From positions 320,001-384,000 of the forward strand of contig CAVRJM010000001.1 of assembly GCA_963722075.1 (NCBI GenBank): a stretch of 64,000 nt of DNA, in the 5' to 3' direction. The DNA comes from Candidatus Babeliales bacterium (lineage in GTDB: Bacteria; Babelota; Babeliae; Babelales; JANWKD01). Positions 8,195 to 63,533 of the stretch are shown here, in pieces. Under the pieces are notes generated by a model. That model did not search any database. It was given only the letters and a program-made list of their open reading frames with translations, and was not told the origin of the DNA. The position numbers were made by a program, and so were the translations under genes. Numbering within the stretch: position 1 is the stretch's first letter; each line of letters starts with the position of its first letter.

Positions 8195-8280
8195 GCCGGG
8201 GTGGCGGAATGGTAGACGCAAAGGACTTAAAATCCTTCGGAGGTTTCTCCGTGCCGGTTCGAGTCCGGCCCTCGGCACCA
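8195..8280 (+). tRNA. tRNA-Leu(TAA)
   Basis: GCCGGGG acceptor, CTTAAAA anticodon loop, long variable arm, GGTTCGAGTCC, CCA. Confidence 0.97.
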
Positions 8281-8287
8281 GTCATTT

Positions 8288-8352
8288 CCTTCAGAAATGC
8301 CTGGCAGGCCAGTCACGCCATAGCTCAAAATGAGCGAAGACTGTCCGTCATA
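8288..8352. repeat. Degenerate family-2 palindromic repeat at the tRNA-Leu 3' end
   Basis: CTGGCAGGCCAG, GTCACGCCATAGC and GAGCGAAGACTGTC match segments found after tRNA-Gln (51051-51188). Confidence 0.6.
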
Positions 8353-16379: not shown

Positions 16380-17311
16380 TAATTACCTGATCCTTTTTTT
16401 TTAAAAGTAAATTGATGAGATGGATGTGCTTGATCACACAGCGTTATTAATTCTTGCGCTGATACGTGAATATATTTCTCGGTACTTCCTAATGTTTTAT
16501 GTCCTAAAAGCTCTTGAATAGCGCGTAAATCAACCCCTTGATTTAATAAATGAGTAGCAAAGGAGTGTCTTAATTTATGAGGGCTAATTGAGCGTTCTGT
16601 TTTTAAGCATCTGCCAAACATATTTATAATTCGTTGAATTGAGCGGCTGGTGAGTGGTTCATTAGCAGTATTAACGAATAAATAATTATGGGTATCAGTA
16701 ATAGAGACGCGTTCTTTTTCTATATATTTAGTGATACTGACGTGCGCTTTAGAACCAAAAAGAACTAACCGTTCCTTATTTCCTTTTCCCTTAATTCGTA
16801 TAATTTTATTATTAAAATCAATATCGTTAATTTTTATATTTATTAATTCAGAGCAACGGACTCCCGTAGCATATAATAATTCAAAAATAGCTTTATCACG
16901 TAATGGTTTTTTGGTAGGTAAATCAGTTTCTTTTACGGCATCTAATAAATGGAAAATTTCATCAACGGTAAGATATATCGGTAACTTTTTTTCAAGACGA
17001 GGGCGAACTAGGTGTAAATTAAGCGCAATATGTTGCTTCAATAAAAATTTTTCAAAAGATTGAAAGGTAGATAATTTACGGGCAATAGAGTTTTTACTCA
17101 TTTTTTTATGATATAACGAAATTAATAAACGTTCTATTATTTGTTTAAAGGGAATTTCAGCGGATTGTTCTTTTATGATTCGCTGCCAAAAATACAAAAG
17201 TTGTGTAAGATCATTTAAATAAGCACGTAATGTATTTTCTGATAAATTTTTTTCAATTTCATTAAAAGTAATGAATTCTGCAATTTTTTCTTCAAAATCT
17301 TTTAAGGTCAT
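16379..17311 (-). CDS. xerC: Tyrosine recombinase XerC/XerD family
   Basis: LYATGVRCSE, GKGNKER, HKLRHSFATHLL, QELLGH, T..Y; alternative start at 17368. Confidence 0.9.
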   Translation of the reverse strand: MTLKDFEEKIAEFITFNEIEKNLSENTLRAYLNDLTQLLYFWQRIIKEQSAEIPFKQIIERLLISLYHKKMSKNSIARKLSTFQSFEKFLLKQHIALNLHLVRPRLEKKLPIYLTVDEIFHLLDAVKETDLPTKKPLRDKAIFELLYATGVRCSELINIKINDIDFNNKIIRIKGKGNKERLVLFGSKAHVSITKYIEKERVSITDTHNYLFVNTANEPLTSRSIQRIINMFGRCLKTERSISPHKLRHSFATHLLNQGVDLRAIQELLGHKTLGSTEKYIHVSAQELITLCDQAHPSHQFTFKKKGSGN

Positions 17312-17453
17312 AATTCTACCCCTAGATAAGCATGAATAAATATAGTTATCTATTTTATTATTTTTCATATTTAAACCTTAATTTACTAACGTATGCAAGA
17401 AAATCTGGAGGTATGCAAAAAATCTTGCTCAAATGATATAAAATTATAAATGT

Positions 17454-17686
17454 ACGTCGTTGCGAGCTTGTCGAAGCAATCCAGCATTCATTAAAATTTT
17501 ACAGCTCATTTCATAAATTTATTTATTATAATGATTCATTCATTCAATGAAAAAAAACTATTTATTAGTTTTATACGAAATAACTTTTTACTTGTTTCAA
17601 TAATTTACTGAGCTTTATTCCATTATTTTCTATAAGTTCGTATCATTTATTATAACCTGGATTGCTTCGGCAGGCTCGCAACGACG
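17454..17686. repeat. Family-1 inverted pair with ~171-bp AT-rich spacer
   Basis: ACGTCGTTGCGAGCTTGTCGAAGCAATCCAG (17454-17484) / CCTGGATTGCTTCGGCAGGCTCGCAACGACG (17656-17686). Confidence 0.9.
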
Positions 17687-38466: not shown

Positions 38467-38508
38467 CGTCGTTGCGATCCAGCCTTCGCCCAAGGGGCTT
38501 CGGCGGAC
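38467..38508. repeat. Truncated family-1 arm fused to a family-2 hairpin
   Basis: CGTCGTTGCGA then TCCAGCCTTCGCCCAAGGGGCTTCGGCGGAC. Confidence 0.7.
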
Positions 38509-48237: not shown

Positions 48238-49641
48238 ATGCGTTTGGACGAAAATTTTATAAAAAACGCGCTTCCTGGGAGTAGTTTTGTCAACAAAATT
48301 TTTCCTGAAAACATATCATTAAGTATTGATTCACGAAAAATTAATAAAGGAGATATTTTTGTTGCGTTAGAAGGATCACAGTGCGATGGTCATGATTTTA
48401 TTACTGAAGCAATAGAAAAAGGAGCTGCAGGATTAATTATTGCAGAGCATAAAAAAGATTACGTAATCAATAGTATAAAAAATAAGCTTGAACAATTATT
48501 GGTTGTATGTGTTTCAAATACCCGTAGTGCGTTGATTACCTTAGCAACGGCATGGCGTGATCAATTTAATTACCCAGTAATTTGCATAACCGGTTCAGTA
48601 GGAAAAACATCTACTAAAGAAATTATTTGCAATGTTTTGGATCTTCATGGCACCTCATATGCAGCATCATATGGTAACCAAAATACGGCAATAGGATTGG
48701 CGCTTACTATATTTTCTATGCGATCAGATCATCAAGCAGCTATTTTTGAATTGGGTATTAATAAGCGCGGAGAAATGGCACAATTGGTTGCGATGGCGCG
48801 CCCGACTATGGCATTGATTACCAATATTGGTCATGCGCATATGGAAGGTCTTGGTTCTATTGTTGATATAGCGGCAGAAAAACGAGATATCTTTTCATTA
48901 TTTAAAGAGAGTAATATTGGTATTATCAATGGCGATCAACCATTACTTTCACATATCTCTTATAGTCATCCTGTGGTGAAATTTGGATCAAAAACAACAA
49001 ATCAAATACAAGCACGTAAAATATTTCAGGGAAGTAATTACGTTTCCTTTATTTTAAAATTATATGGTGAAAAGCATCGTATTGTTTTAAAAACAAATCA
49101 TAACGGAGCGGTATTTAATACGCTTGCTGCCGTAGCGGCTACTTATTTATTAGGTATTCTCACTGAAACTATTATTCAGGCGATTCAAATGCCAGTTATT
49201 GTTGCTGGACGCTTTGAGCAGCGGTTGTTAAAAAATGGGAAGGGCGTTATTATTAATGATTGTTATAATGCGAGCCCTGAAAGTATGAAAGCAGCATTGT
49301 TAGCTCTACAGAAAATAGAAACATCCGCTGAAAAAATAGCCGTTTTGGGTGATATGGCTGAACTGGGTATTAACGGGCCGTTTTGGCATAGACAACTAGG
49401 CCGTTTTTTGAGAAAAGTGCCATCGTTAAAAAGAGTAATTTTAGTTGGATCATTAGTTGAATGGACTAAAAAGACACTTCCGGTGGGAGTTTCAATGGAA
49501 CATGTTGCTAATTGGAAAGAAGCGGTTAACGTGTTGCAAGAAAAGATGAGTAACGAAAACCTCATTTTAGTAAAAGGCTCGCGGGTATTAGGGTTGGATA
49601 AGTTAATAAATGAAATGACCTATGAAAAAGAACAACTGTGA
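48238..49641 (+). CDS. murF: UDP-N-acetylmuramoyl-tripeptide--D-Ala-D-Ala ligase
   Basis: DSR, ITGSVGKTSTKE, NIGHAH, ND.YNASP.SM, LGDM.ELG, VKGSR. Confidence 0.95.
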   Translation: MRLDENFIKNALPGSSFVNKIFPENISLSIDSRKINKGDIFVALEGSQCDGHDFITEAIEKGAAGLIIAEHKKDYVINSIKNKLEQLLVVCVSNTRSALITLATAWRDQFNYPVICITGSVGKTSTKEIICNVLDLHGTSYAASYGNQNTAIGLALTIFSMRSDHQAAIFELGINKRGEMAQLVAMARPTMALITNIGHAHMEGLGSIVDIAAEKRDIFSLFKESNIGIINGDQPLLSHISYSHPVVKFGSKTTNQIQARKIFQGSNYVSFILKLYGEKHRIVLKTNHNGAVFNTLAAVAATYLLGILTETIIQAIQMPVIVAGRFEQRLLKNGKGVIINDCYNASPESMKAALLALQKIETSAEKIAVLGDMAELGINGPFWHRQLGRFLRKVPSLKRVILVGSLVEWTKKTLPVGVSMEHVANWKEAVNVLQEKMSNENLILVKGSRVLGLDKLINEMTYEKEQL

Positions 49642-49645
49642 GGAT

Positions 49646-50536
49646 ATGTACCATAAATCAGTGCTTGTTAATGAAGTTATTGAATACATAAAACCCCAAG
49701 CGCATGGGGTATATTTAGATGTTACGTTTGGAGGCGGTGGGCATACGCGGGCATTGTTAACCGCTGAGCCCACTTGCTCAGTAATAGCGCTTGATTGGGA
49801 TGCGCAGGCATTGGAAAAGAATGGCTATGCCCTTCAGGAAGAATTTCCCGGAAGGCTTACCTTGTTATGGGGCAATTTTGCGCAAGTAGATAAGAAATTA
49901 AAGAAGGAAGGTTTGGGCCCTGTCGATGGTGTGATTGCTGATTTTGGTACTTCACAATATCAACTGCTTGAACGGTCTGGCTTTTCATTTAATGTTGATA
50001 GTCCTCTTGATATGCGTATGTCGCCAGCTCATCAAAAAATAACAGCGCAAGAAGTGGTAAATAAGGCAACTGAAAAAAAGCTTTATGATATTTTTAAGGA
50101 GCTCGGGCAAGAACAATATGCTAGAAAAGCAGCACGGGCAATTGTAGAAGCACGCGCAAAATATTCGATAAAAACGACTCGTCAATTAGCCCATATTATT
50201 GAAGGCGTAATACCTCGTAAGAAAAAAAATATACATCCAGCTACCCAAATATTTCAAGGCTTACGTATTTATGTTAATAAGGAGCTAGAAAATATTCAGT
50301 CCTTTTTAAATGCAAGTTTACGTGTTTTAAAGCCGGGTGGAAGGCTTCTTTGTATTAGTTTTCATTCCTTAGAAGATCGCTTGGTTAAACAGTTCTTTAA
50401 AAACCATACTAATACACCGCCATTGGTGGAAATAGTAACTGATCACATAATTGTTGCCACCCAAGAAGAACTTAAAGAAAATCCTTCTGCTCGTTCAGCA
50501 AAATTGCGTGTTGCGCAATTAAAGGAAAATGTATGA
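49646..50536 (+). CDS. rsmH: 16S rRNA m4C1402 methyltransferase
   Basis: H.SVL, D.TFGGGGH, PLDMRM, FQGLRI.VN.EL, SFHSLEDR, ARSAKLR. Confidence 0.97.
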   Translation: MYHKSVLVNEVIEYIKPQAHGVYLDVTFGGGGHTRALLTAEPTCSVIALDWDAQALEKNGYALQEEFPGRLTLLWGNFAQVDKKLKKEGLGPVDGVIADFGTSQYQLLERSGFSFNVDSPLDMRMSPAHQKITAQEVVNKATEKKLYDIFKELGQEQYARKAARAIVEARAKYSIKTTRQLAHIIEGVIPRKKKNIHPATQIFQGLRIYVNKELENIQSFLNASLRVLKPGGRLLCISFHSLEDRLVKQFFKNHTNTPPLVEIVTDHIIVATQEELKENPSARSAKLRVAQLKENV

Positions 50537-50651: not shown

Positions 50652-50942
50652 ATGAAAATAACAGAGGTAAAAGTATATCCAGCGAAGGAAAACGGTAGGC
50701 TTAAAGCTTACGCAACGATAATCTTTGATAATGATTTTATTGTGCGTGATCTGAAAGTAATTGAAGGGGAAAAAGGACTCTTTGTATCAATGCCTTCCCG
50801 TCGCCGCAAAGATGGCTCATTTAGAGACATTGTCCATCCGCTCAACGCTGATACTCGCAAGATGATTGAAGAATCTATTATTGGTGAGTATAATAAAGCG
50901 GTTAAAATGGGTTTTAGCACCTCCGCTGAATCTGAAGAATAA
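50652..50942 (+). CDS. spoVG: SpoVG family nucleic-acid-binding protein
   Basis: MKITEV, LKA.A.I.FD..F.V, GLFVSMPSR, FRDI.HP.N. Confidence 0.95.
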   Translation: MKITEVKVYPAKENGRLKAYATIIFDNDFIVRDLKVIEGEKGLFVSMPSRRRKDGSFRDIVHPLNADTRKMIEESIIGEYNKAVKMGFSTSAESEE

Positions 50943-50975
50943 AAAGTAGTAATATAAAGTTATTTGAATTATTGT

Positions 50976-51050
50976 TGGGGCGTCGCCAAGTGGTAAGGCA
51001 CCAGGTTTTGGTCCTGGCATTCGGAGGTTCGAATCCTTCCGCCCCAGCCA
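50976..51050 (+). tRNA. tRNA-Gln(TTG)
   Basis: TGGGGCG acceptor, TTTTGGT anticodon loop, GGTTCGAATCC, CCA. Confidence 0.97.
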
Positions 51051-51188
51051 TCCTTCGCTCTTACAGAGCTACGGCTGGGCAAGCCAGTTGTTTAAATGAA
51101 ATATACATAATAGAAAAGTGAAGAGCGAAGGCTGTCACGCCCTAGCTTATGCTTCAAAGTTATACCCGAGAAAAAAGCGACGGCGGAC
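51051..51188. repeat. Family-2 palindromic repeat cluster between tRNA-Gln and the GIY-YIG gene
   Basis: CCTTCGCTCTTACAGAGCTACGGCTGG ... AAGAGCGAAGG ... GCGACGGCGGAC. Confidence 0.7.
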
Positions 51189-51243
51189 TATAACTCGAAT
51201 TTCCTCTATTTTAAATAATAGTTATATTATCTGATTTCTTAAA

Positions 51244-51483
51244 ATGTATTATGTCTATATATTAAATTCAGTTATTGATAAAAATCGTATGTATGTCGGT
51301 TGTACAATTGATCTAGAAAATAGACTAAACGAACACAATGCTGGTGAATGTATACATACGAACAAGTACAAGCCATGGAAATTGTGGACTTACATATATT
51401 TTGAGAATAAAGAAAAGGCAATCGCTTTTGAACGTTACTTAAAATCTGGTTCTGGTAGATCTTTTTCAAAAAGGCATTTTTAA
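51244..51483 (+). CDS. Small stand-alone GIY-YIG nuclease
   Basis: YYVYIL.S, YVG.T.DL..RL.EHN, T..Y.PW.L, A..FERYLKSG.GR. Confidence 0.92.
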   Translation: MYYVYILNSVIDKNRMYVGCTIDLENRLNEHNAGECIHTNKYKPWKLWTYIYFENKEKAIAFERYLKSGSGRSFSKRHF

Positions 51484-51485
51484 CT

Positions 51486-52118
51486 ATGCAATCAAACATC
51501 TTGCTCCTTGCTTCAAAATCACTCCAACGCCGAACGGCACTAGAACAAGCATGCATCCCTTTTAGAATTATCGAACAAAATGCTGATGAAAGCATTTGTG
51601 ATTATACGCTTCCATTCGGATCCCTTCTAGAATCAATTGCTATTCATAAAATGAATCATATTGTTATGCATGCTAATCTTGAGCATCCTGTTCAATTTGT
51701 TTTGACCGTGGATACCATGGTGCAAGATGGTGCGGGGAAAATATATGGTAAACCCTCATCTAAAGAAGTGGCACGATCATATATTAAAGCATTGCGTGAT
51801 AATCCGGGCCAGGTAGGCACTGCCTTTTGTCTTGATAAAAAAGAGTATGGAGATAATAGGTGGCATACAGTTGATCGCATTACCAAATTTGTGAGCGCCG
51901 GTTATTCGCTCGACATTCCCAATCATTGGATCGATACCTATTTTGATCAAGTGCCCGAATATCTTTCTATTGCCGGTGGACTTACTATCGAAGAATATGG
52001 AGCTCAATTTTTAAAAACCATTGACGGCTCTTATGGATGCGCAATAGGGCTTCCGCTTTATGAATTACGAGAATCATTAGATTTAATGGGATTTTTTACA
52101 TTGAAAAATTCAATCTGA
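51486..52118 (+). CDS. maf: Maf family nucleoside triphosphate pyrophosphatase (copy 1)
   Basis: LLASKS..RR, DE, DT.V, GKP, G.Y...IGLP. Confidence 0.88.
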   Translation: MQSNILLLASKSLQRRTALEQACIPFRIIEQNADESICDYTLPFGSLLESIAIHKMNHIVMHANLEHPVQFVLTVDTMVQDGAGKIYGKPSSKEVARSYIKALRDNPGQVGTAFCLDKKEYGDNRWHTVDRITKFVSAGYSLDIPNHWIDTYFDQVPEYLSIAGGLTIEEYGAQFLKTIDGSYGCAIGLPLYELRESLDLMGFFTLKNSI

Positions 52119-52197: not shown

Positions 52198-52974
52198 ATG
52201 AAAAATAGTAGCGTTTTAATACTTGCGTTCTTATTATATGGCGTTATGCAGGCTATGGAAGCACCAAAAGGTAGCGCATGCCGCATGACTTCATTGGTAA
52301 AGATATCTGCATTGGAGAATATTATAGGCCGATTTTTAGGGCAAGTCTCACCTTCGCCTTCTTTAGAAGATCTATTCAAAGTTTTAGATATTAAATGCAA
52401 TTATAAAGATCATGATCCATTTGGCTTTGTAGCTACGAGTCAACCATCTTTATATATTCTATTAAATGTTCTTATCGATCAAAAAATAGCGGGGAAATTG
52501 CCACATGTTTCAATCGATACTATTAAAGAATTAAACAATGTTTTTAAAAAGAAAACTACTGAATCATTGCGCCATATTGATAATCAAATTGAACGGTTAA
52601 AAAAAGGGGAGGCATCCTTTAAAGAAGCGCAATCACAAGGATTAGTTATTTCTGAAGAAGCGCCTCACATTGATCCATTGAGCAGCGATACTTTACGGAT
52701 TATTGAGCGCGTTGTTAGAAGGGGAGCCCCTTTTAGATTCAGAGAGTTTCTTAAGGAATTTAAGGTAGATTGTAATAAGTTTTTACCCAATGATTTTGAA
52801 TTGCCTGCGGTTTATTTGTTGATGAAAAATTTATTGTTAGGTAAAACATCACGCTATACCTATAAGAAATTAAAGAGCATTTCTATTGATAAAGTTATAG
52901 AATTAAATAATTATCTCAAAGTAATTGCGGTATATTATCAGCATGAATTAGATGATAAAATAAAAAGTTTATGA
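52198..52974 (+). CDS. Secreted hypothetical protein with an internally duplicated domain
   Basis: Signal peptide then AME; two copies of CN...P..Y.L...SID...ELNN..K. Confidence 0.7.
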   Translation: MKNSSVLILAFLLYGVMQAMEAPKGSACRMTSLVKISALENIIGRFLGQVSPSPSLEDLFKVLDIKCNYKDHDPFGFVATSQPSLYILLNVLIDQKIAGKLPHVSIDTIKELNNVFKKKTTESLRHIDNQIERLKKGEASFKEAQSQGLVISEEAPHIDPLSSDTLRIIERVVRRGAPFRFREFLKEFKVDCNKFLPNDFELPAVYLLMKNLLLGKTSRYTYKKLKSISIDKVIELNNYLKVIAVYYQHELDDKIKSL

Positions 52975-52997
52975 TAATTGCCATTAAAGGTTTTGGA

Positions 52998-53741
52998 ATG
53001 CTTATACATATTATTTCGTTAATTTGTTCCTTTTTTATTATTACGCTTTTTCCTTCATGCAAAGAAATGGAAAAATCAAAAAAACCAGGAACCATAATAT
53101 TTTTACATGGGATTTCATCGGCAGGAAAAACGTCAGTTGCAAAAAAATTACAAGATGTGTTACCAGAGTATTATAATTATGCAGATTTAGATGCATTTAC
53201 CAGTATGACACCAAAACGGCTGGTAAATTTTGATCCAAATGCACAGCCATCTGTTGAAGCGGCTGAACAAGGCATTGTTATTGAACCGATCACGTATGAT
53301 GGTCAGCAGGTAATGGTGGTAAAAACAGGTTCCTATTCGCAAAAGGGCGGTATGTTATTACCTAAATTATATAAGTTGTATGTAGAAAATGGCTTTAATT
53401 TAATTATTGAATTTGCATTTTCAGGTATTGATCAACAGTTACAAGAAAACTATTTAAAAGAATATCTCAAAGAGTTGCATTCATTTCGTGTTTATTTTAT
53501 TAATCTAACGGTTTCTCCTGAGGTCGCTTCACAACGCGAATTACAGCGTGGCGGTTTTAAAGGATTATCAGCGGGACAACGTTTATTTATGCTCAAAGAA
53601 TTTACTGAACCACAAACCTTTGATTTAGAAATTGATACATCAAATCTTACGCCTGAGCAAATTGCACAACAAATTGATGCGTTTATGCAATCTCATCCAC
53701 AGCCAGAAGCATTTAATAAATTATATAAGAAATATTTTTAA
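52998..53741 (+). CDS. Chloramphenicol phosphotransferase-like P-loop kinase
   Basis: IIFLHG.SSAGKT, RE..RG, DLEIDTS..TPE..A; hydrophobic N-terminus. Confidence 0.8.
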   Translation: MLIHIISLICSFFIITLFPSCKEMEKSKKPGTIIFLHGISSAGKTSVAKKLQDVLPEYYNYADLDAFTSMTPKRLVNFDPNAQPSVEAAEQGIVIEPITYDGQQVMVVKTGSYSQKGGMLLPKLYKLYVENGFNLIIEFAFSGIDQQLQENYLKEYLKELHSFRVYFINLTVSPEVASQRELQRGGFKGLSAGQRLFMLKEFTEPQTFDLEIDTSNLTPEQIAQQIDAFMQSHPQPEAFNKLYKKYF

Positions 53742-53767
53742 TGAATAAAAGAAGAGGTTTTTTCTTT

Positions 53768-54314
53768 ATGAATAGCACTATTCAAGTAGTTTTATTTTTT
53801 AGTTTTATAACTTTTGGGGCTACTCAAATTGTATCGATGGAAAATAAACCAGTTTCTTCTAATACACATCCTATTAACTGGGCAATTAATTTGTCATAGG
53901 ATACGATCGAACATAGTTGGGGAACTTGGAATGATTTTTTTCGTGAACAAATTAATCCATTACTAAATCGTAACCTATTTGATAAAGCCATAAAAAACGG
54001 ATCGTACCAAACAATGTCAGCCTATGAATTTTTAGCATTAAATGTTGAAAATCAACGTCTTAATAAATATAAAAATGCAAAAAATGCGCAAGAAGCATAC
54101 CCCGAAAATGACCGTCCTCGTGGAAAAAAAGATATCGATAGCGTTAATTTTTTGAGAACACGTGCCTGTGTAAGTCCGATTGTGGTTTGCAATAGTAACT
54201 GATAAAGAAGGTCTAATACATTATATTAAACTTGATGATGTTCATCGGCTAATAGCGGCAGCAATAAAAAAATCTCCCATTAAAGTCTTTTTTATTGATT
54301 TAGAAATTAAATAG
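53768..54314 (+). pseudogene. Disrupted secreted protein with a ParB/Srx-like C-terminal motif
   Basis: Signal peptide ORF with in-frame TAG at 53897, continuing in frame through the 54014 ORF, then a frameshift near 54185 into ...IKLDDVHRLIAA...IK*. Confidence 0.65.
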
Positions 54315-54371
54315 TAACTATATTTCCAATTCCATAGCCAACAGCATTTGATCAGTTATATAAGAAATATA

Positions 54372-55628
54372 TCAGTATTCAAAATTATTTATTATAGCCC
54401 ATGTATCTATGGCTTCTAAAATAAGCTTGCTTTGTTCATCATCTTTATTAACTGCTATAGATATAACTTTTTTAATGATTTCCGGATTGAGTGTTTTAGG
54501 ATTTGCATATTGTAGAAGTAGCTTTACTATTGGTAAATTATCATGATGTGCAGCCAAGCTAAAGGCAGAACTATTCAATTTATCAATTACATTAACATTT
54601 GCGCCGTGTTTTAAAAATAATTGAACAAGTTTATATATAAGTGGTGAAGGTTTATTTCTACATAATGAAATAAGTGGTGTACTTCCTGATGAATCGATTC
54701 CATTAATATTTGCACCACGTTCTAATAAAAAAAAGATTAATTTTATATATTTTTTATTTAAATTATTTACTGAATCAACCATAATAACATTTAATAAAGG
54801 ACCGTTGATAGAATAAGTGGCAACGGGGTCCTGGATTGATTCGTTAGGGCTCAGGCCAAGTTTAATAATTTTTTTTAATTTTTTATAAGCATCGTTAGCA
54901 TCGTTATTCGCAGCTTGAGGGTGATTTTTTATATTGTAATTATAAGTAAAAAAAGGAAGTAGAAGCTTAGAAATATAAGGTTTAAAAATAGCTGCTGAGG
55001 GATTTGTGAATTTTAATAATATTGTAAATAATTTTGGTTTTATTGTATATATATATGCATGTAATAAATAAAGACCATATTCTTTATTATTTAAAACAAC
55101 TAATAATTTTTGTAACTCACCTGCATTATTTTGCTTAATGGAATTATCTACATTTTTTAAGGTTTTCGCCGTATTACCTAACATATAAATAAATAATGGA
55201 TTAACGTTTATTTCTACCCAATCTTCAACTGAGCCATAAAGAACTGGCTGATATTCCCTTAGATAATTTAATGCATTATCTGTAATGAAAATGCCGTTAG
55301 ATATAGAATCAAACCGACGAGCAATTTCAATTGATAAGTGATCTAAAAAGTCACTATCTTGTAATACTACATATAAATTTGTATTAGTCATTGAAAGTCT
55401 AGATAATTCTTTAATAAATTGAATTAATTGATCTTTGGAATTAATAGTTTTTGGCAATAAATTCAAGACTATTTTATAAATAAGTTCAAAGGGTAATGTT
55501 CCTAATGAAGGTTTTTCTGGAATAGGGGCAAGTTGTATAGTTTCGACCGATTCTTCGGGTTCTTCCATTGGGATAGAAAAAGTGAAGAAAGAAATAATAA
55601 AAATACCTAGAAACAGTTTATTTTTCAT
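54372..55628 (-). CDS. Secreted F-box-like plus ankyrin repeat protein
   Basis: Signal peptide, LGTLPFELIYKI F-box-like motif, LLERGANIN..D..G.TPL and LKHGANVN ankyrins. Confidence 0.8.
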   Translation of the reverse strand: MKNKLFLGIFIISFFTFSIPMEEPEESVETIQLAPIPEKPSLGTLPFELIYKIVLNLLPKTINSKDQLIQFIKELSRLSMTNTNLYVVLQDSDFLDHLSIEIARRFDSISNGIFITDNALNYLREYQPVLYGSVEDWVEINVNPLFIYMLGNTAKTLKNVDNSIKQNNAGELQKLLVVLNNKEYGLYLLHAYIYTIKPKLFTILLKFTNPSAAIFKPYISKLLLPFFTYNYNIKNHPQAANNDANDAYKKLKKIIKLGLSPNESIQDPVATYSINGPLLNVIMVDSVNNLNKKYIKLIFFLLERGANINGIDSSGSTPLISLCRNKPSPLIYKLVQLFLKHGANVNVIDKLNSSAFSLAAHHDNLPIVKLLLQYANPKTLNPEIIKKVISIAVNKDDEQSKLILEAIDTWAIINNFEY

Positions 55629-56906: not shown

Positions 56907-57524
56907 ATGAATAATATTCTTTTATTGGCATCTCAATCATATTCGCGTCGTCAATTACTCAGTCAAGCAGCTATCCCTTTTGTATTGTTAGAACAATCAG
57001 CTGATGAAAATGCCTGCGATTGGAATATGCCACTTACTCAGTTAGTTACTTCAATCGCTAAGCATAAAATGGAACAGGTTATTTTACCGCGTCACACAGA
57101 TAGTAAACCGATTTTTGTGTTGACGGCTGATACCTTAACGCAAGATCTATCAGGAACGATTTTGGGTAAACCAACATCGCGATCCCATGCACTTGAAATG
57201 CTACGCGCAGTGCGCGCAGGGGCTCGTATTGCTACGGCATTTTGCTTAGATAAAAAAATTTATCGCTTTGATACCTGGCAGACCCAAGAACGAATTATAA
57301 TGGTAGTAGAATCGAGTTGTATATTTAATGTGCCTGAGCAATGGCTTGAACAATATCTTTATCATGTACCCGCATTAAGTTGTTCTGCAGCCATGTATAT
57401 TGAAGGGTATGGGGCGCAATTTTTAAAATCCGTAACGGGTTCTTATAGTACCATTATTGGTTTACCTATATGTGAGGTGCGGCAAGCCTTAGAAAAAATG
57501 GGATTTTTTAGCGAGAGTATTTAA
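56907..57524 (+). CDS. maf: Maf family nucleoside triphosphate pyrophosphatase (copy 2)
   Basis: LLASQS..RR.LL, DE, ADT, LGKP, GSYSTIIGLP. Confidence 0.88.
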   Translation: MNNILLLASQSYSRRQLLSQAAIPFVLLEQSADENACDWNMPLTQLVTSIAKHKMEQVILPRHTDSKPIFVLTADTLTQDLSGTILGKPTSRSHALEMLRAVRAGARIATAFCLDKKIYRFDTWQTQERIIMVVESSCIFNVPEQWLEQYLYHVPALSCSAAMYIEGYGAQFLKSVTGSYSTIIGLPICEVRQALEKMGFFSESI

Positions 57525-59065: not shown

Positions 59066-59256
59066 GTCATTCCGAGCGCGTCCGACCTCGCCACGGGGCT
59101 CCGCCGGATTCCGTCAATGATAGTGTGCCTGTCCGGCGAAGTTGTTTACACCGCCATAGCTTTTAGCGACGGCCGGATTAACGTAGATGGATGGGAATCC
59201 ATTAATAAGATTTTTCATTTATAAATGGATCACCACGGCTAACGCCTCGTGATGAC
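59066..59256. repeat. Three-level nested repeat (family-1 containing family-2 containing family-2)
   Basis: GTCATTCCGAGCGC[GTCCGACC...[CCGCCATAGCTTTTAGCGACGGCCGGA]...GATGGA]TGGGAATCCA ... TGGATCACCACGGCTAACGCCTCGTGATGAC. Confidence 0.8.
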
Positions 59257-62187: not shown

Positions 62188-63060
62188 TTAAGATTTTGTA
62201 AGTGCCATATTTTGTAATCGCTTAATACGCTGCTCTACGGGTGGATGAGTAGAAAACAATGACATCCACGTTGCTCCCGTTAAGGGATTAATAATAAATA
62301 ACGGGGATGTGGTTGCTTCTACAGCTTCATGAGCGGGTGCGTATTGCTTATAATTTGATATTTTAGCGAGTGCGCTGGCCAGAGCTAATGGTTCCCGTGA
62401 ATAATGTGCTCCCGATTCATCAGCAAGATATTCGCGTGATCGGGAAATAGCTAATTGCAATAACGTTGCAGCAATGGGCATAACAATGGCGGCAACAAGC
62501 ATAGCCAACGGATTAGAGCGCTTACGGGAATCATTACCATTTTGTTGCATTGTTCCCCATAACGCTGCATATTGCATCATTTGAGCTGCATAGCCGATTG
62601 CGGTAGCTAAGGTGGCAGCTATGGTGGTAACTAAAATATCACGATTTTTTACATGAGAAAGCTCATGAGCTAAAACGCCGCGTAATTCATCATGATCTAA
62701 TAGACCTAATATGCCGCTGGTTAAAACAACCGAAGCATGCTTCGGGTTGCGGCCCGTTGCAAATGCGTTTGCAATAGGTAAATTGACGAGCCATAATTTG
62801 GGCATTGGTATATTCATAGAAGTGCATAGATCTTGTACGGTAGTATAAATAGCATTATAACGACTTTGATCTAGTGGCTGTGCGCGGTATAATCGTAATA
62901 CAATCGATTCAGAAAAGAAATAAGCAATAAAGTTCATTACTAATGCCATAATAAACGCTACTTGCAATCCTTGGCGTCCGCCAAGAAGGGATCCTAAAAC
63001 TAAAAATAGTCCGCTTAAACAAGTAAGTAACAATATTGTTTTTATCGTATTTGAAATCAT
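62188..63060 (-). CDS. htpX: Zinc metalloprotease HtpX
   Basis: NAFATGRNP, AHELSHVKNRD, SRSREYLAD, STHPP..RI; AAGGAG RBS before 63060. Confidence 0.95.
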   Translation of the reverse strand: MISNTIKTILLLTCLSGLFLVLGSLLGGRQGLQVAFIMALVMNFIAYFFSESIVLRLYRAQPLDQSRYNAIYTTVQDLCTSMNIPMPKLWLVNLPIANAFATGRNPKHASVVLTSGILGLLDHDELRGVLAHELSHVKNRDILVTTIAATLATAIGYAAQMMQYAALWGTMQQNGNDSRKRSNPLAMLVAAIVMPIAATLLQLAISRSREYLADESGAHYSREPLALASALAKISNYKQYAPAHEAVEATTSPLFIINPLTGATWMSLFSTHPPVEQRIKRLQNMALTKS

Positions 63061-63071
63061 AAATAACTCCT

Positions 63072-63533
63072 TCATTCATCATAATCAACTTCCCATTGGA
63101 CTATATTCAACGATTCTTGAAAGTCCTTAGAAGGTGGTTCTTTTTGCAGGGCTATATCCCTTAAATTATCGTGCTTGATAGTAATTAACTTTTTTGCACT
63201 TATCTGTGCTGCTTCTTTGCAGACATTATTTTCGTGCGTTAATTCATCATGCGCATCATCAAATACTTTGTTCATTTCGTTTTGTAGCCGCTTAATTTTC
63301 TTTTGTAATTTTAAAATCATATCGACACCGGCTAAATTAATACCGAGCTGATGGGTCAGATATATAATTTCTTCAAGCTTATCAACATCTTCTTCGGAGA
63401 AAAGGCGGGTATTGCCTTCGGATCTCTTAGGAACAATTAACCCTTCTTTTTCATATAATCGAATGGTTTGCTGATGCACGGAAAACATTTTGGCAACGGC
63501 AGAAATTGAATAATAGCCTTTTTTTCTTTTCAT
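63072..63533 (-). CDS. hspR: MerR family regulator, HspR-like
   Basis: YSIS.VA....H.QTIRLYE..GLI.P.RS.GNTR.FS, LG.NLAG. Confidence 0.75.
   Translation of the reverse strand: MKRKKGYYSISAVAKMFSVHQQTIRLYEKEGLIVPKRSEGNTRLFSEEDVDKLEEIIYLTHQLGINLAGVDMILKLQKKIKRLQNEMNKVFDDAHDELTHENNVCKEAAQISAKKLITIKHDNLRDIALQKEPPSKDFQESLNIVQWEVDYDE

Follow-up and report, generated by a model that had tools for sequence, protein, structure and literature searches.

Small nucleases of the GIY-YIG superfamily have already been linked to palindromic repeats in the Ssn systems, in which Ssn nucleases (SsnA, CDD cd10448) accompany NTS/SRM hairpins (Chenal et al., 2025; PMC11893778). SsnA is reported there to bind its tagged hairpin solely as single-stranded DNA and to cut a few bases upstream, to be inactive on RNA, and to lower transformation with NTS-bearing DNA about five-fold in Neisseria (PMC11893778). 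A different precedent is T4 SegB, described as a GIY-YIG enzyme that recognises a tRNA T-arm motif and drives the inheritance of its region (PMC2330249).

The locus considered here lies in a window of 64,000 nucleotides (C1:320001-384000) of the 1.47 Mb genome (34.7% GC) of a Candidatus Babeliales bacterium, where a tRNA-Gln gene, a palindromic repeat and a small GIY-YIG gene stand in a row. The original prediction took these for an autonomous unit, analogous to REP-RAYT, whose nuclease spreads the repeats in which the window abounds or uses a structured RNA cotranscribed with the tRNA. A nuclease-repeat unit of this general kind does have a published analogue in Ssn/SRM; what does not stand is that it drives the window's family-1 repeats. 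Two systems had been merged, and the plentiful repeats of the window are mostly family 1.

The tRNA-Gln locus and its nuclease

The gene order at the locus is rsmH, spoVG, tRNA-Gln, leader, GIY-YIG gene and maf, and the cassette is real, consisting of the tRNA, a four-module hairpin leader that starts from its CCA, and an intact, conserved GIY-YIG gene of 79 codons' worth of protein (79 aa). Its features, in window positions, are as follows.

50976..51050, plus strand: tRNA-Gln(ttg), the sole Gln tRNA detected in the genome, with CCA encoded
51048..51078, no strand assigned: module 1, a hairpin whose outer arm is the CCA of the tRNA, with a conserved internal mismatch loop
51075..51087, no strand assigned: module 2, a small palindrome whose left arm is also used by module 1; a T-rich run comes after it
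51121..51134, no strand assigned: module 3, the complement of the module 1 left arm, including the CA of CCA
51133..51188, plus strand: module 4, in which the core palindrome recurs in the orientation opposite to that of module 1, with partial decay at this locus
51244..51483, plus strand: GIY-YIG nuclease gene, 79 aa, single domain, Slx1/UPF0213-like fold, under purifying selection

The family-2 repeat had been placed right after the tRNA CCA, with a complement near 51121 and an end at 51188, and these coordinates are borne out: a single T at 51051 is followed by CCTTCGCTCTT from 51052, the complement occupies 51121-51131, and 51188 is the final base of the last hairpin. The statement that the repeat begins after the CCA is right as to this T and the sequence that follows it, but the CCA itself (51048-50) pairs with TGG at 51076-78 and so belongs to the palindrome arm. 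The encoded CCA is also found at orthologous sites that are free of the element. Module 3 carries one T.C mismatch, at the first base past CCA. Folded as DNA, module 1 reaches -7.2 kcal/mol (z -4.4) on the minus strand, where its loop is purine-rich, and -4.0 (z -1.9) on the plus strand; the fold of module 4 at this locus is no better than those of shuffles, and module 2 appears terminator-like for this AT-rich genome. As RNA, the leader forms a more stable fold than 198 of 200 shuffles do (z -2.8), and an Rfam search of it returned no known RNA family. The pre-tRNA of this locus is not predicted to have its CCA masked, the pairing probability there being 0.15 or less. Between tRNA-Gln and maf there is no integrase, nor is a duplicated tRNA 3' end seen, so that the locus lacks both marks of an integrative element at a tRNA att site.

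The description of the protein as a nuclease-only GIY-YIG with its catalytic residues in place holds well. It scores 57 bits against PF01541 (cut-off 22.6), and among 55 aligned homologs Y5, Y17, G19, R27, H31 and E63 are invariant, which gives a PF01541 domain with the catalytic Tyr, Arg, His and Glu of the superfamily. The structure model has a pLDDT of 95.6, and its closest folds are HIGLE and Slx1 (TM about 0.72-0.75), with UPF0213 also among the best; the best profile matches to solved structures are of UPF0213 type (PDB 1zg2 and 1ywl, E 6e-13), while I-TevI matches far more weakly in both structure and sequence. The protein is a bare catalytic domain without an additional DNA-binding region. 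Against two close homologs pN is 0.10 and 0.17 and pS 0.80 and 0.67, and since pN lies well below pS the gene is conserved. An NCBIfam search gave no match above cut-off, and a protein atlas returned GIY-YIG clusters alone. That this is the only mobility-type nuclease is true within the window (66 of 67 ORFs of at least 70 aa scanned); it fails for the genome as a whole, where four genes belong to this clade and three more are Ssn-like. Other window proteins include a tyrosine recombinase (16382-17368), two Exo_endo_phos proteins and one PIN-PhoH protein; the recombinase, probably of XerC/D type, adjoins a family-1 repeat pair at 17456-17685.

Hairpin copies and a second repeat system

The four genes of the clade lie at the tRNA-Gln, tRNA-Gly(gcc) and tRNA-Glu loci and on contig C4, the last three encoding proteins 44-47% identical to that of the Gln locus; the Glu-locus paralogue has one stop and the C4 copy is broken, so that two of the four are damaged. 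The C4 copy (C4:5400-5710) is close to the Glu-locus nuclease, with a hairpin upstream and no tRNA called there; the outer arm of that hairpin is not CCA and matches its own flank. Hairpins starting at the CCA are present on 28 of the 37 tRNA/tmRNA genes (36 tRNA genes plus tmRNA). Patterns of our own choosing divide the 28 into five subtypes: 16 hairpins resemble the Glu leader, 7 the Gly leader and 2 the Gln leader, and 3 are others. The Gln-leader subtype is confined to tRNA-Gln and tRNA-Thr(cgt). Most of the genome's tRNA-end hairpins resemble the leaders of the Gly and Glu paralogues, which counts against the gene at the Gln locus as driver of the repeat system. Five different tRNAs have an identical 32-base trailer in common. 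Copies of the commonest (E) subtype stand 12 times in one orientation and 4 times in the other, the one form being the exact reverse complement of the other, which points to inversion of the hairpin at the DNA level. Among 37,860 CCA trinucleotides, the form with CCA arm plus module 2 turned up at 19 tRNA/tmRNA ends and once elsewhere, further listed matches being the same palindromes on the opposite strand.

The core palindrome has 71 copies on contig C1, compared with 0-1 in shuffles; 9 are near tRNAs and 62 elsewhere, the latter in both orientations, and 58 of the 62 lie beside CGTC-type tags as judged by a loose pattern with a background of 37%. Many of these copies start TCCAG, and the unit therefore brings its own CCA. 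Three copies in the window, apart from the cassette, are the following.

8278..8344, plus strand: hairpin without a gene, at the tRNA-Leu(taa) CCA, its subtype like the Glu paralogue's leader
38479..38503, minus strand: family-2 core palindrome inside a CGTC-type repeat, not at a tRNA
59154..59176, plus strand: family-2 core palindrome inside a CGTC-type repeat, not at a tRNA

Two similar units of ~130 bases (C1 about 871.8 kb and 881.7 kb; L164:510-670 and L165:400-560) have a family-2 hairpin at their start and a second hairpin on the CCA of no called tRNA; they gave no Rfam match and are possibly a small RNA of a new type ending in CCA. The sequence after tRNA-Ser(gga) and its hairpin (C1:236218-236440) resembles, by its motif, the small SRP RNA. 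The genome also has a single IS200-type Y1 transposase gene (C1:156495-156854; L200:1370-1910), whose end hairpins are unrelated to families 1 and 2.

Family-1 (CGTC-type) repeats number 71 on C1 by the pattern that we used, 8 of them in the window. They have the CGTC tag and CCAG tail of NTS, and the published SRM pattern is not matched exactly. Each of three Ssn-like GIY-YIG genes (C1:1398408-1398695, L163; C1:140112-140399; and C1:1361610-1361855, which has a stop) is bracketed by an inverted pair of these repeats; solitary inverted pairs with a spacing of 150-170 bases have the appearance of derivatives without the gene. The same division recurs across genomes. Among 30 loci of the Ssn-like clade there are 21 with an inverted CGTC-type pair, 7 with an exact SRM, and none with an upstream tRNA or a family-2 leader, whereas among 28 loci of the tRNA-linked clade 22 have an upstream tRNA, 19 a family-2 leader and none an inverted CGTC-type pair even by a relaxed pattern; the published SRM pattern is found at 0 of 126 loci of the latter clade. 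Family 1 thus belongs with the Ssn-like system, and the Ssn-like genes are candidates for the enzyme of this genome's CGTC repeats. A single driver for both repeat families is rejected by this double dissociation of the two nuclease clades, and with it falls the proposal that the gene studied here drives the repeats of the window, given that family 1 brackets the Ssn-like clade at 21 of 30 loci and the tRNA-linked clade at 0 of 28. A long branch with a support of 99 separates the clades, a split that arises partly by construction, the groups having been collected with different queries; the Gln-locus protein is 33% identical to this genome's Ssn-like protein.

Linkage to tRNA ends and presence across genomes

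A protein search gave 919 relatives at E of 1e-10 or below among 929 candidates of similar length, and we took 16 GTDB loci, the best 80 of 574 metagenome loci and the best 30 at order level. Counting loci whose upstream flank is 530 bases or longer, we found a tRNA or tmRNA on the same strand, ending no more than 450 bases before the gene, at 8 of 15 GTDB, 39 of 52 metagenome and 22 of 28 order-level loci, or 69 of these 95, a count that includes this locus, one locus twice (L001 and L098) and one identical pair (L061 and L066); at the other 26 a tRNA was not called within those 450 bases. Antisense upstream tRNAs occur at 0, 1 and 2 loci of the same three sets and downstream tRNAs at 2/13, 7/67 and 2/30. 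The genes that precede homologs cover 26 anticodon types plus tmRNA, the named hosts include Patescibacteria-type, Rhizobiaceae, Akkermansiaceae and Bacteroidota genomes, and in distant phyla, too, the gene has the same composite leader in front of it. The expectation that homolog flanks would be enriched for tRNA 3' ends and for repeats of both families is upheld for the tRNA ends and family-2 hairpins, but not for family-1 pairs (0/28). Matches to the clade on mobile replicons amount to 1 viral contig (single-pattern scan) and 0 in 72,556 plasmids at 1e-12. Where the tRNA or tmRNA is without a full CCA (L005, L006, L007 and L053) the palindrome arm uses the last 3-6 bases of the gene; at L008, L041, L073, L115 and L199 the cassette follows a short, att-like duplicated tRNA 3' end, which stands in place of, or alongside, the intact tRNA.

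Behind the CCA, 46 of 62 distinct leaders open with the standard arm, and module 4 is found in 33 of these 46. Module 3 matches the three bases that follow CCA in 38/46 (permutation mean 15.2, maximum 25), module 1 does so in 37/46 (mean 19.6, maximum 26), and covariation in module 2 is not significant (19 vs 18.5 over the 46 leaders), all three tests being inflated by the relatedness of the leaders. A pairing that reads tRNA identity beyond the CCA was considered and rejected, the base after TGG being mostly C whatever the discriminator. It is the antisense strand that gives the more stable module 1 in all 34 parsed leaders, with RNA and DNA parameters alike. Leader similarity shows no overall link with protein identity (rho 0.05, p 0.07), leaders being common only to protein pairs above 70% identity, and nuclease subclades group by tRNA type. 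A first, quick tree of 80 columns left many forks open.

The original prediction also made repeat abundance depend on the gene, and across 151 genomes of the order the tRNA-end hairpins do follow it. Defining the 85 gene-bearing genomes by a profile match at 1e-20 or better, the tRNA-CCA hairpin pattern occurs in 84 of them and in 38 of the 66 others, and at least two copies in 79/85 and 26/66 respectively; a reversed control pattern gave 5 matches in total. The mean hairpin count is higher with the gene in all 12 families that have both classes (in one marginally), a comparison in which the gene's own leader raises the count of gene-bearing genomes and kin are not independent. Fifteen genomes below the 1e-20 threshold have 5-16 tRNA hairpins, and hairpins therefore outlast the gene or do without it. 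Neither Y1 transposases (42/54 vs 63/97) nor Ssn-like genes (25/33 vs 80/118) have a significant hairpin link, and a Y1/IS200 transposase as driver of the hairpins is rejected on this ground and on that of its own unrelated ends.

The cassette is an optional insert at its orthologous site. In the 30 best-matching of 142 Babeliales genomes, the site between spoVG and tRNA-Gln has the nuclease gene in 4, a hairpin only in 3, neither in 22 and is cut by a contig end in 1, and all encode CCA. About 11 of the 22 element-free sites have, by eye, ordinary unrelated terminators, and a genome of the same genus has another hairpin subtype and then directly maf. Two of the four genes at the site encode proteins only 41-49% identical to that of the Gln locus (another is 78% identical), and the site was therefore colonised more than once; the copy in genome G112 is split. 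A comparison with a near-identical strain in soil run X2 delimits one further feature.

51061..52118, no strand assigned: swapped tract, in which leader, nuclease gene and maf differ from the near-identical strain's allele

One 515-base X2 contig (depth 4.5) matches 50898-51060 with 2 differences, continues with 213 unlike letters and then returns to maf at 87% identity, giving a gene-less allele; other, unlinked X2 maf pieces are about 86-88% identical, and pieces on either side (48885-49972, 52520-55011 and 62687-63379) show 0 or 1 difference each. The right end of the tract lies between about 52100 and 52520. The simplest reading of this single depth-4.5 contig would be a recombination tract from hairpin through maf, of either direction. 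Runs X1, X3 and X4, in which leader and gene are uncovered and no contig spans the gap, were left out. The maf gene at 51486-52118 is ~87% identical to the near-identical strain's allele, and a second maf paralogue lies at 56907-57524. Presence and absence at a homologous site, as expected of a homing endonuclease, are seen, and in one contig the flank may have been co-converted.

Proposed spread of the cassette and its known counterparts

The cassette is widespread and mobile-looking, and we infer both cutting by its nuclease and mobilisation; gene and hairpin leader together likely make up a selfish element of very small size, able to spread with neither integrase nor transposase. On balance we favour an optional CCA-end cassette whose nuclease would nick beside its own hairpin in single-stranded DNA, with host recombination and repair copying both the cassette and hairpin-only pieces. 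The enzyme would act like SsnA, binding a sequence-tagged single-stranded hairpin, probably on the strand with the purine-rich loop. Related cells would exchange whole cassettes by homologous recombination, the conserved tRNA gene serving as the left arm and a gene downstream as the right; the genome encodes ComEC and DprA, which, together with rarity in viral contigs and the plasmids in which no match was found, fits transfer from chromosome to chromosome. Hairpin fragments with their own CCAG end might then be captured at other folded single-stranded sites, that is at tRNA ends, presumably through CCA microhomology, and in the loops of CGTC repeats, and fold-back repair would keep the arms matched and flip the hairpin. 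A GIY-YIG nuclease is not known to form a covalent intermediate, so that joining would have to come from the host. The preference for tRNA ends is not accounted for by any test run here, and the grouping of subclades by tRNA type counts against this explanation in that old vertical inheritance with losses would give the same picture. A fuller version, which we advance tentatively, would have an autonomous element of ~430 bases whose nuclease reads stem plus CCA in folded single-stranded DNA, targets tRNA/tmRNA ends harmlessly, homes with flanking genes and seeds hairpins, its thousands of members forming a second family of sequence-specific single-stranded DNA nucleases.

The five-fold effect of SsnA on transformation (PMC11893778) gives some weight to another role, that of a domesticated gatekeeper which cuts incoming single-stranded DNA at tRNA-end hairpins and so limits recombination or integration there, being kept by the host with spread secondary. 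Strong purifying selection, the competence genes ComEC and DprA and the rarity on mobile replicons (1 viral contig, 0/72,556 plasmids at 1e-12) would suit it, but patchy presence, frequent decay (two of four paralogues broken, the G112 copy split) and colonisation of one tRNA by different subclades (78% vs 41-49% identity) do not, and we regard it as rather unlikely. Homing of the SegB type is less probable again. It would involve a double-strand cut at cassette-free tRNA alleles and break-repair copying with flank co-conversion, the hairpins being passengers that hide the site, and it can draw on the GIY-YIG enzyme of T4 that acts at a tRNA T-arm motif (PMC2330249), on a swapped tract that takes in maf like a co-conversion tract, and on the grouping of subclades by tRNA type; it sits badly with a bare catalytic domain best matched by HIGLE, Slx1 and UPF0213 and far more weakly by I-TevI, and leaves the hairpin-only copies, the conserved internal mismatches and the nesting in other palindromes unexplained.

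Two further readings we consider improbable. The cotranscribed RNA of the original prediction, by which the leader would be transcribed with the tRNA as a structured partner, guide or processing signal for the nuclease, is in keeping with a leader that is always downstream of the tRNA on the same strand and folds as RNA (z -2.8), and tRNA read-through would be the simplest route to expression of the gene. It is disfavoured by the greater stability of the loop on the antisense strand at 34 of 34 loci, the transcript loop being pyrimidine-pyrimidine, by hairpins that are flipped or stand in both orientations off tRNAs, by the reported inactivity of SsnA on RNA (PMC11893778), and by the absence of both an Rfam match and a variable guide-like segment among what was identified, which makes it quite doubtful. 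Least probable of all is a passive association: the palindromes would be neutral or serve as tRNA terminators, and the gene would encode an ordinary repair nuclease that happened to end up behind tRNAs. A T run does often follow module 2 in this genome and hairpins do persist in genomes without the gene, but the same composite leader recurs in distant phyla and with 26 anticodon types, element-free sites have unrelated ordinary terminators (about 11/22, by eye) and the sister small GIY-YIG clade has tRNA links at 0 of 30 loci.

Integrative elements have tRNA ends as their main landing sites, and the occupation of 28 of 37 tRNA ends could have a bearing on gene flow in these intracellular bacteria, whose genomes are small. 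If the favoured reading of host-copied nicking is true, an enzyme will have been named for a widespread, apparently undescribed class of tRNA-end palindromes, a site-directed spread will need no recombinase of its own, and Ssn will be joined by another clade of tiny nucleases that cut single-stranded DNA in a sequence-specific way. Two repeat systems are also told apart in one genome, with a candidate enzyme for its CGTC-type repeats. The label cd10449 presumably denotes this tRNA-linked clade.

In the full-text literature, mostly without subscription papers, the combination of tRNA-end hairpins with a small GIY-YIG gene was not found described, and the comparison with known systems is by parts. 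With REP/REPIN-RAYT the cassette shares short palindromes in inverted pairs, many solo copies and one cognate flanked enzyme gene (PMC3733652), the dispersed inverted pairs being represented here by 71 core copies and by modules 1 and 4; a cognate Y1 HUH transposase flanked by the repeats was not found, the enzyme being a hydrolytic GIY-YIG nuclease rather than a Y1/HUH transposase. GTAG/CGTC-tagged REPs were compared by the text of PMC3733652, and one of the GTAG families of that paper may be the core palindrome. Like SegB, it places a GIY-YIG gene among tRNA genes and would spread with flanking DNA, but SegB cuts a double-stranded 27-bp site, a hairpin family is not described with it in the account consulted (PMC2330249), and the Gln-locus protein is the catalytic domain alone. 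Standalone Slx1-like/UPF0213 proteins offer the same minimal domain and the best structure matches, without a tRNA or repeat context in the description given (PMC1564403). The Ssn systems come nearer, with a small single-domain GIY-YIG enzyme (79 aa here) tied to a dispersed palindromic repeat that outnumbers the gene, and with Y6, Y17 and E64 of SsnA corresponding by motif position to Y5, Y17 and E63 (PMC11893778). They differ in clade, in length (79 vs about 95 aa), in the SRM, which is absent near 126 loci of the tRNA-linked clade, in repeats that bracket the gene where family-2 hairpins lie upstream only, and in the anchoring to tRNA/tmRNA CCA, tRNA being unmentioned in the main text of the Ssn paper (PMC11893778). 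By the proxy of 30 Ssn-like Babeliales proteins, 7 of whose loci match SRM, the protein appears to fall outside the Ssn clade. The cassette is thus judged, on sequence comparison, to be a member of neither the Ssn nor the RAYT systems, and to represent a nuclease-plus-hairpin kind that is already known, for which Ssn/SRM is the closest precedent, one from which this clade is set apart by a different motif and by its anchoring to tRNA ends.
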